Positions 15,591 to 15,731 of a stretch of 64,000 nucleotides of DNA are shown here, one piece after another. The position numbers and the translations under genes were made by a program. The DNA is from Escherichia coli (GTDB taxonomy: Bacteria > Pseudomonadota > Gammaproteobacteria > Enterobacterales > Enterobacteriaceae), in NCBI RefSeq assembly GCF_030013595.1, contig NZ_CP122768.1; one strand, written 5' to 3'. The notes beneath the pieces are model-generated. The model was not told where the DNA came from and made no database searches. It saw only the letters and a list, made by a program, of their open reading frames with translations. Position 1 is the first letter of the stretch, and each line of letters opens with the position of its first letter.

Positions 15591-15731
15591 AATACTATTA
15601 GCCAGTGGCTAACATTGCAAGAATTAGCGATTTCTTCAGCTGGAGAAGGGACAGTTTGCTATACATGTTGGTGAAAGAGGATTTATATACTTTCATCGGG
15701 TCGCTGCCGTACCAAGCCTTGTCCGAATCCG

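Follow-up and report, generated by a model that had tools for sequence, protein, structure and literature searches.

A decaying fragment of gor between agrA and agrB in the dinQ locus of Escherichia coli, probably the scar of an old segmental duplication

Genomic islands duplicate the ends of tRNA and tmRNA genes (att-type duplications), leaving a displaced 3′ fragment at the far end. The remnants of tandem duplications, and of homology-facilitated illegitimate or Campbell-type insertions, take the form of a direct repeat of part of a gene, with one novel junction and an orphan copy that decays.

In the dinQ toxin–antitoxin locus of Escherichia coli, the antisense RNAs agrA and agrB have “presumably ... 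been tandemly duplicated”, agrA being the degenerate copy (Weel-Sneve et al. 2013, PLoS Genet, PMC3567139). The locus analysed here is the same one, and at the joint of its two agr repeat units sits a short piece of gor, here termed psi-gor. With a probability of roughly 0.75, psi-gor is a non-functional, decaying fragment of the resident gor (approximately codons 362–388), left as a scar when a segment was duplicated long ago in an ancestor of Escherichia. In contrast to the published account, position and the comparison with E. albertii and Citrobacter put agrA at the ancestral place and make agrB the added copy. A gor-derived sequence in this spacer is mentioned neither in PMC3567139 nor in the other papers searched, on dinQ with gor, duplication or Citrobacter.

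The likeness to att-type duplications lies in an intact gene, inserted DNA and an orphan direct repeat of the 3′ end, as seen in E. albertii and, far more recent, in Phytobacter ursingii; the differences are that neither an integrase nor a defined att core is present here, that the target is protein-coding and the repeat ~270 nt, and that the E. coli psi-gor stops short of the stop codon. With the remnants of tandem duplication and of illegitimate or Campbell-type insertion, the locus shares the direct gor repeat, the novel junction and the decaying orphan copy. It also resembles OrzP of the zor/orz system, an extra antitoxin sRNA gene without a toxin of its own and with a copy number that varies among E. 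coli strains (PMC11264685); unlike OrzP, the extra agr copy bears a datable fossil that marks its origin. Psi-gor belongs to a common class, that of gene remnants produced by duplication or insertion, and is new only as an instance; it represents no new type of element or mechanism.

The window, the whole 64,000-nt stretch that was analysed, is a segment of an E. coli chromosome that is not K-12, with an arsR–gor spacer 95.1% identical to that of MG1655. From the list of ORFs, arsR lies at 14997–15350 on the minus strand and an intact gor, encoding the 450-residue glutathione-disulfide reductase and named gorA in the matching RefSeq records, at 16230–17582, also on the minus strand. Between them, the dinQ toxin ORF (27 residues, GTG start) occupies 16093–16176 on the plus strand, matching the 84-nt dinQ coding sequence annotated in RefSeq records, and the antisense target in its 5′ UTR lies at 15986–16019 on the same strand, as the third copy of a 34-nt repeat (PMC3567139). 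The two antisense RNA genes are on the minus strand: agrB, the dinQ-distal copy, at 15501–15584 (Rfam RF02891 AgrB, 108.1 bits, E = 4.6e-20), and agrA, adjoining the dinQ promoter, at 15735–15818 (RF02891, 99.7 bits), the names following the gene order of the literature and the mismatch counts to dinQ. Each belongs to a minus-strand repeat unit that runs from the terminator flank through the RNA and the −10 up to and including the −35 hexamer (TTGCAAG), and the agrB unit (15487–15621) aligns locally to the agrA unit (15721–15855) with a score of 88. Read from the sequence, the agrB −35 hexamer is TTGCAA (15615–15620) and the −10 hexamer TAGTAT (15592–15597), both on the minus strand.

Psi-gor occupies the gap between the two units. 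Its core, corresponding to about gor codons 362–379, lies at 15660–15712 on the minus strand, and a probable decayed remainder (about codons 380–388) continues at 15641–15659, colinear with gor 16420–16444; this remainder is clear in the K-12-type allele (GCTGGCGG..CGGTATA) and is not significant by itself. On the agrA side an 8-nt junction (15713–15720; AAGGCTTG on the gor strand) joins it to the end of the agrA unit, and on the agrB side a second junction of 19 nt (15622–15640) separates it from the agrB −35, with agr-unit homology stopping at 15621 and no demonstrable gor homology left of ~15641. Psi-gor therefore leaves 21 nt between itself and the 3′ end of agrA and ~57 nt between itself and the 5′ end of agrB (15584 by Rfam), upstream of which it spans about −57 to −129; it lies outside both antisense RNA genes and outside the agrB −35 and −10. 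Its gor-proximal end (15712/13) is 8 nt from the start of the agrA unit at 15721, in direct orientation, and since it abuts the end of that unit it has the position expected of a duplication junction. As AgrB RNA the fragment yields a single overlapping match (15677–15767, plus strand) of 24.2 bits, below the RF02891 gathering score of 40 bits. A weak repeat between 15634–15654 and the end of the dinQ ORF was considered as a dinQ remnant and set aside, as its part from ~15641 fits decayed gor homology better.

In an ungapped comparison on the plus strand, 15660–15712 is identical to the parental segment within intact gor (16445–16497, minus strand by gene) at 44 of 53 positions (83%), in direct orientation and at an offset of 785. 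The original prediction had noticed a direct match of about 80% some 780 bp away; its spacer coordinates hold, and its gor copy, given as 16448–16500, was placed 3 nt too high. Local alignment of the spacer against gor puts the similarity well above background. By blastn, the 879-nt arsR–gor spacer finds its best match in the 1353-nt gor at E = 1.7e-10, with a runner-up at E = 3.6, and the Smith–Waterman score of 35 is reached in none of 1000 shuffles (mean 8.8, sd 1.3, maximum 16). A pattern made from the 26-nt core, allowing up to three mismatches, occurs at only two places in the 64-kb window, against 0.00 matches expected.

The homology is probably longer than this core, since the alignment of the K-12 segment allele with gor extends to 76 columns and scores 28 (shuffle maximum 18, 0/2000). 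Judged by these alignments, the gor-derived stretch in the window probably comprises ~15641–15713, or about gor codons 362–388; the left extension by itself is equalled in 130 of 2000 shuffles and is not significant. The two alleles have kept different parts of the parent: the K-12 allele retains gor states gone from the window allele (GCTGGCGG, CGGTATA and ATCGC), with no perfect match to gor beyond ~10 nt, and the window-type allele has an 18-nt perfect match (GGTGAAAGAGGATTTATA). The segment follows the strand and codon register of gor, such that an 11-residue minus-strand peptide matches an 11-residue stretch of Gor, and the minus-strand ORF at 15598–15696 reads 12 residues comparable to 12 in Gor. 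With only about codons 362–388 of 450, no 5′ part, and indels relative to gor that include a 4-nt deletion in the K-12-type allele, psi-gor is truncated and disrupted in frame and cannot encode Gor.

A set of 80 gor loci from other Enterobacteriaceae places the fragment in an evolutionary setting. Among the matches listed by the genome scan, Escherichia other than ordinary E. coli is represented by E. albertii and one divergent ‘E. coli’. Within the 80 loci, those with dinQ-agr downstream of gor are limited to E. albertii, E69 (a divergent genome named ‘E. coli’), two Citrobacter and Kosakonia sacchari, the last with another gene between gor and dinQ-agr. All of these module-bearing loci except E69 have a single agr gene that is closest to agrA (92% identity to agrA and 89% to agrB in E. 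albertii), and by this comparison agrA is the counterpart of the single agr of E. albertii and Citrobacter. In E. albertii an 8-nt junction, AAAATTTA, equivalent to the E. coli AAGGCTTG, comes after the agr terminator flank and leads into GTACGGCGGCAATCAGGT, which matches gor codons 362–368 at 17 of 19 nt. A further 17 nt past GTACGGCGGCAATCAGGT come the last 30 nt of gor including its stop codon, matched at 26 of 30 positions (score 22; shuffle maximum 14, 0/500). The breakpoint in gor agrees between E. albertii and E. coli to within 1–2 nt, and one metagenome contig has the E. albertii-type arrangement. The shared junction and breakpoint imply a single event, predating the split of E. coli and E. 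albertii, that copied gor from codon 362 to the stop codon; the remnants in the two species would then be different pieces of one copy, E. albertii keeping both its ends and E. coli only the first ~75 nt.

Other apparent gor pieces were discarded. A Citrobacter psi-gor, suggested by the 128-nt stretch that follows the agr terminator in C. youngae and Citrobacter sp. On2M (score 16–17 against gor; 0–2 of 1000 shuffles), was rejected because most of it (CCTGCATATACGGCGTATACACC) is native gor-downstream sequence that is also present in the module-free Citrobacter loci L007 and L009, so that at most ~15 nt of the stretch could be derived from gor. A 60-nt gor-like match downstream of gor in locus L043 is of borderline score (20, against a shuffle maximum of 19) and falls within a different coding region.

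The dinQ-agr module itself is a discrete unit of ~490 bp that runs from the agr terminator to the dinQ terminator and holds only dinQ and agr. It is found in ~2,570 plasmid records, mostly of conjugative plasmids, where the toxin is annotated dqlB/DqlB or dinQ/DinQ, and the chromosomal dinQ-agr is one member of this mobile family. Plasmid-borne modules, for example on Salmonella pFORC51 (L092), Pantoea pDSJ05 (L093) and in Enterobacter (L094), are complete, with the agr terminator, antisense core, promoters, toxin ORF and toxin terminator. No gor-like sequence was found on the plasmid-borne modules. As the module occurs in Citrobacter, Kosakonia and plasmids with no gor piece attached, gor sequence is not part of it. 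The proposal that the agr/dinQ locus was built partly by duplication of the gor 3′ region therefore stands for the piece in the spacer, which does derive from gor, and is not supported for dinQ-agr, an independent unit of ~490 bp that exists elsewhere without gor.

Several other arrangements were observed downstream of gor. In the E. albertii locus (L006), a higB/higA-like type II toxin–antitoxin pair occupies 5945–6657, downstream of dinQ-agr-psi-gor (Pfam HigB-like toxin, E = 4.6e-34, and HTH_3 antitoxin), where E. coli has the ars operon; the region downstream of gor looks like an insertion hot spot. In Kosakonia sacchari (L046), a single-agr module lies 749–1262 nt past the gor stop codon, with a minus-strand coding region between them and no adjacent gor fragment. 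In Phytobacter ursingii (L029), the gor 3′ end is repeated in direct orientation over 199 bp at 99% identity and up to a stop codon (4650–4853 and 6232–6437). This repeat lies 1.38 kb downstream of gor, and between it and gor there is an A+T-rich insert that encodes a fimbrial protein (Pfam PF00419, E = 2e-14). The event is recent, and its layout is that of the Escherichia psi-gor.

In Escherichia, the direct gor repeat brackets the module, with the resident gor intact on the other side, and the sequence comparison shows that the final ~270 nt of gor, from codon ~362 through the stop, were copied to a position directly after the dinQ-agr terminator flank. On the far side of the E. coli psi-gor there are 19 nt and then the second agr unit, agrB, which starts at its −35 hexamer and has its own −35 and −10. 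Among the options offered in the original prediction, that of a recombination scar has fared best: the segment came from gor by duplication and is best read in that way. What is less certain is the path. The most likely one, to which about even odds may be given, is duplication of a whole unit followed by deletion in the distal copy. The duplicated unit would have begun at gor codon 362, taken in dinQ, the divergent promoters and agr, and ended at the agr terminator, giving two complete toxin–antitoxin copies; a single deletion in the distal copy would then have removed the second dinQ with its SOS promoter and the rest of gor from codon ~389 on, stop codon included, and the second antitoxin, being kept, would have become the present agrB. 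On the scar reading, psi-gor today does no more than separate the agrA terminator from the agrB promoter.

Tandem duplication with a deletion in the distal copy accounts for the finding that nothing gor-like follows agrB: searches for a second psi-gor past the agrB terminator, and for a third upstream of dinQ (15869–15985), gave scores of 8 (shuffle mean 9.0) and 9, at the shuffle mean, and neither a second dinQ nor a gor 3′ end was found in the E. coli distal copy. Two observations count against this path. Past the stop codon of the E. albertii psi-gor no second dinQ remnant was found (score 9; shuffle mean 9.2), so that an extra deletion is needed there, ending exactly at the module boundary. 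In addition, the breakpoint on the agrA side is the end of the chromosomal module as set by Citrobacter, which is unexpected for an arbitrary tandem duplication.

Those same two observations favour an alternative that is possible, although less probable than the tandem path, in which psi-gor is again a functionless scar, and the arrival of dinQ-agr next to gor was itself what duplicated the gor 3′ end. Candidate processes are homology-facilitated illegitimate recombination and a Campbell-type single crossover of a circle that carried the module and gor(362–450). Either would have displaced the native 3′ end of gor with the sequence downstream of it; E. albertii would represent the primary state, and agrB would be a later gain of E. 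coli, made when the two gor repeats recombined by unequal crossover and deletions followed. Such a path is consistent with an E. albertii psi-gor that reaches the stop codon and is followed by unrelated sequence with no second dinQ, and with a breakpoint right at the edge of the module. The mobility of dinQ-agr, which has a different position in Kosakonia and occurs in ~2,570 mostly conjugative plasmid records, also speaks for it, as does the recent analogue in Phytobacter ursingii, where the fimbrial gene is followed by the 199-bp, 99% repeat of the gor 3′ end.

Against integration, the lack of anything gor-like past the agrB terminator in E. coli (score 8; shuffle mean 9.0) means that here too an extra deletion exactly at the module boundary is called for; each path thus requires one such deletion, in one of the two species. 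If the E. albertii psi-gor were a displaced native end, native downstream sequence might be looked for beyond it, but the sequence past its stop codon matches no gor-downstream region among the 80 Enterobacteriaceae loci, and the hairpin found there is too weak for a terminator. The ~490-bp module has no integrase, and no circular form of it is known. Nor do diagnostic sites tell the source of psi-gor: Escherichia gor comes first by only 1–2 of 83 sites, an uninformative lead. A more specific version, and a more tentative one still, has dinQ-agr as a mobile cassette shared with conjugative plasmids that entered by recombining into the gor 3′ end with a copy of its own, psi-gor being the displaced native end (attR-like) and the gor repeats then amplifying the cassette to yield the second antitoxin. 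Were this true, foreign DNA would have come to rest repeatedly at the gor 3′ end in Enterobacteriaceae, and Phytobacter ursingii would be a fresh case of it.

Whichever path produced it, the scar has had a varied fate within E. coli. Among 5,426 complete genomes, the two-agr arrangement with the fragment is present in ~3,840, and the fragment is missing in ~29%, which shows that it is dispensable. In ~750 genomes (for example loci L002 and L003) a 234-bp deletion between the agrB and agrA units has removed the fragment and left a single hybrid agr, and ~830 have a CFT073-type deletion (L004 is CFT073) from an agr repeat to the dinQ repeat. In CFT073-like deletions both agr promoters and the LexA-controlled dinQ promoter are gone and the dinQ ORF is kept. 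A metagenome scan with the junction pattern returned 31 contigs, 24 of them K-12-type, six window-type and one E. albertii-type, with no intermediate architecture among the 31.

Where present, psi-gor exists as two sharply distinct haplotypes, a window type (W), shared with O157:H7 and SMS-3-5 and carried by roughly 800 genomes, and a K-12 type (K), carried by roughly 3,000, both numbers being estimates from evenly spaced entries of the match listing. They differ at ~24 of 80 positions, a 4-nt deletion among them. When K, W and gor are aligned over 83 columns, 49 are unchanged, 14 show changes shared by K and W, 10 are private to K (including the 4-nt deletion), nine are private to W, and in one all three differ. 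The resulting K–W divergence of ~0.3 per site may be set beside that at fourfold-degenerate sites of gor, which is 0.075 between the window strain and K-12 and 0.23–0.27 between E. coli and either E. albertii or E69; the K–W value is close to this between-species level. Internal diversity is higher within W than within K, and 15601–15643 is identical between the two.

The K haplotype has in addition a probable history of exchange. Between K-12 and E69 it shows only ~2 differences in 90 nt, as against ~5% divergence of the flanking genes, and across 15644–15806 there are 28 sites at which K-12 and E69 together differ from the window and two that single out E69. Across gor (5% diverged, ~0.2 at fourfold sites) and most of the remaining region, E69 is the outlier. 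This pattern suggests that E. coli and a lineage like E69 have exchanged a tract of ~170 bp carrying K (psi-gor and the agrA core). Strictly, the K haplotype may instead be under purifying selection; we infer that psi-gor evolves neutrally and that K and W are lineage-level alleles.

The antisense core of ~12 nt also varies. It was compared in the three 34-nt repeat copies of the window (15553–15586, 15787–15820 and 15986–16019) and in loci L001, L005, L012 and L086–L090, and occurs in at least four alleles (GAGAGAGYTCTTATC, GAGAATGCCATYATC, GAGATAGTCRTCATC and GAGAATGCCCACATC). The best match to the dinQ target is agrB in the window, K-12, L088 and L089 (2–4 mismatches, against 8–10 for agrA), and agrA in L005, E69, O157:H7, SMS-3-5 and L090 (4–5 mismatches, against 7–8 for agrB); going by these matches, the cognate antitoxin seems to switch between agrA and agrB among lineages. 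RefSeq places ‘hypothetical protein’ coding sequences in the arsR–gor spacer (WP_000968019.1 and WP_001297979.1; minus strand, 1112–1327 in L088 and 939–1112 in L005), of which that in L088 overlaps the agr/psi-gor region; these are probably spurious ORFs. In E. coli E105 (L091), an IS481-family transposase gene (1223–2177) lies ~45 nt right of the matched agr/psi-gor segment, with arsC to the left and no dinQ or gor annotated in the fetched stretch.

The variation bears directly on whether psi-gor has been put to use. That it serves as a promoter element for agrB, as had been proposed, is not supported: the −35 and −10 hexamers lie outside the fragment, the two haplotypes are separated at ~24 of 80 positions, and ~29% of genomes lack it. 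A broader form of the idea, that psi-gor has been co-opted as an upstream element of agrB (UP-like, by curvature, or as a regulator site) or as an insulator against read-through from agrA, is improbable. Its A+T-rich centre and its position next to the agrB promoter on the upstream side (about −57 to −129) would suit such a role, the identity of 15601–15643 in both haplotypes means that constraint may reach ~−60, and the diversity of the K-12-type haplotype is low. A UP element, however, is expected at −40 to −60, which is mostly the 19-nt second junction; moreover, the haplotypes differ by indels as well as substitutions, agrA has an equivalent core promoter with entirely different upstream sequence, and single-agr strains do without the fragment. 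A modest upstream effect of psi-gor on agrB transcription could nevertheless exist.

Still less likely is that psi-gor acts through its homology to gor, either by RNA pairing with gor mRNA or as a recombination partner in gene conversion or in deletion of the toxin module. The 18-nt perfect match of the window-type allele (GGTGAAAGAGGATTTATA) and the arrangement as direct repeats 785 bp apart, flanking agrA and dinQ, would allow this. Being in the same sense as gor, however, psi-gor could pair with gor mRNA only through a plus-strand transcript, and a scan of 15350–16240 found no plus-strand promoter-like site; the K-12-type allele, for its part, has no perfect match longer than ~10 nt. As to recombination, the haplotypes keep different subsets of gor states, which argues against a recent conversion tract, and a deletion between the repeats would truncate gor. 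The reading of the similarity as chance or composition, for which nothing speaks except the shortness of the match, is already refuted by E = 1.7e-10, by 0/1000 shuffles, by the retained codon register and by the separate gor end-piece at the equivalent junction in E. albertii.

Read as the scar of a segmental duplication, psi-gor has some practical use, in that it marks non-promoter sequence for the design of agrB constructs, and it may explain part of the ‘hypothetical protein’ annotation across the spacer in RefSeq genomes. As apparently the sole neutrally evolving stretch in an otherwise tightly conserved spacer, it exposes two deep haplotypes and the exchange of a ~170-bp tract. Above all, it is a molecular fossil within an SOS-regulated toxin–antitoxin locus, which ties agrB, the functional copy in K-12, to a segmental duplication that reached into gor, and dates the first step of that history to before the split of E. 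coli and E. albertii.
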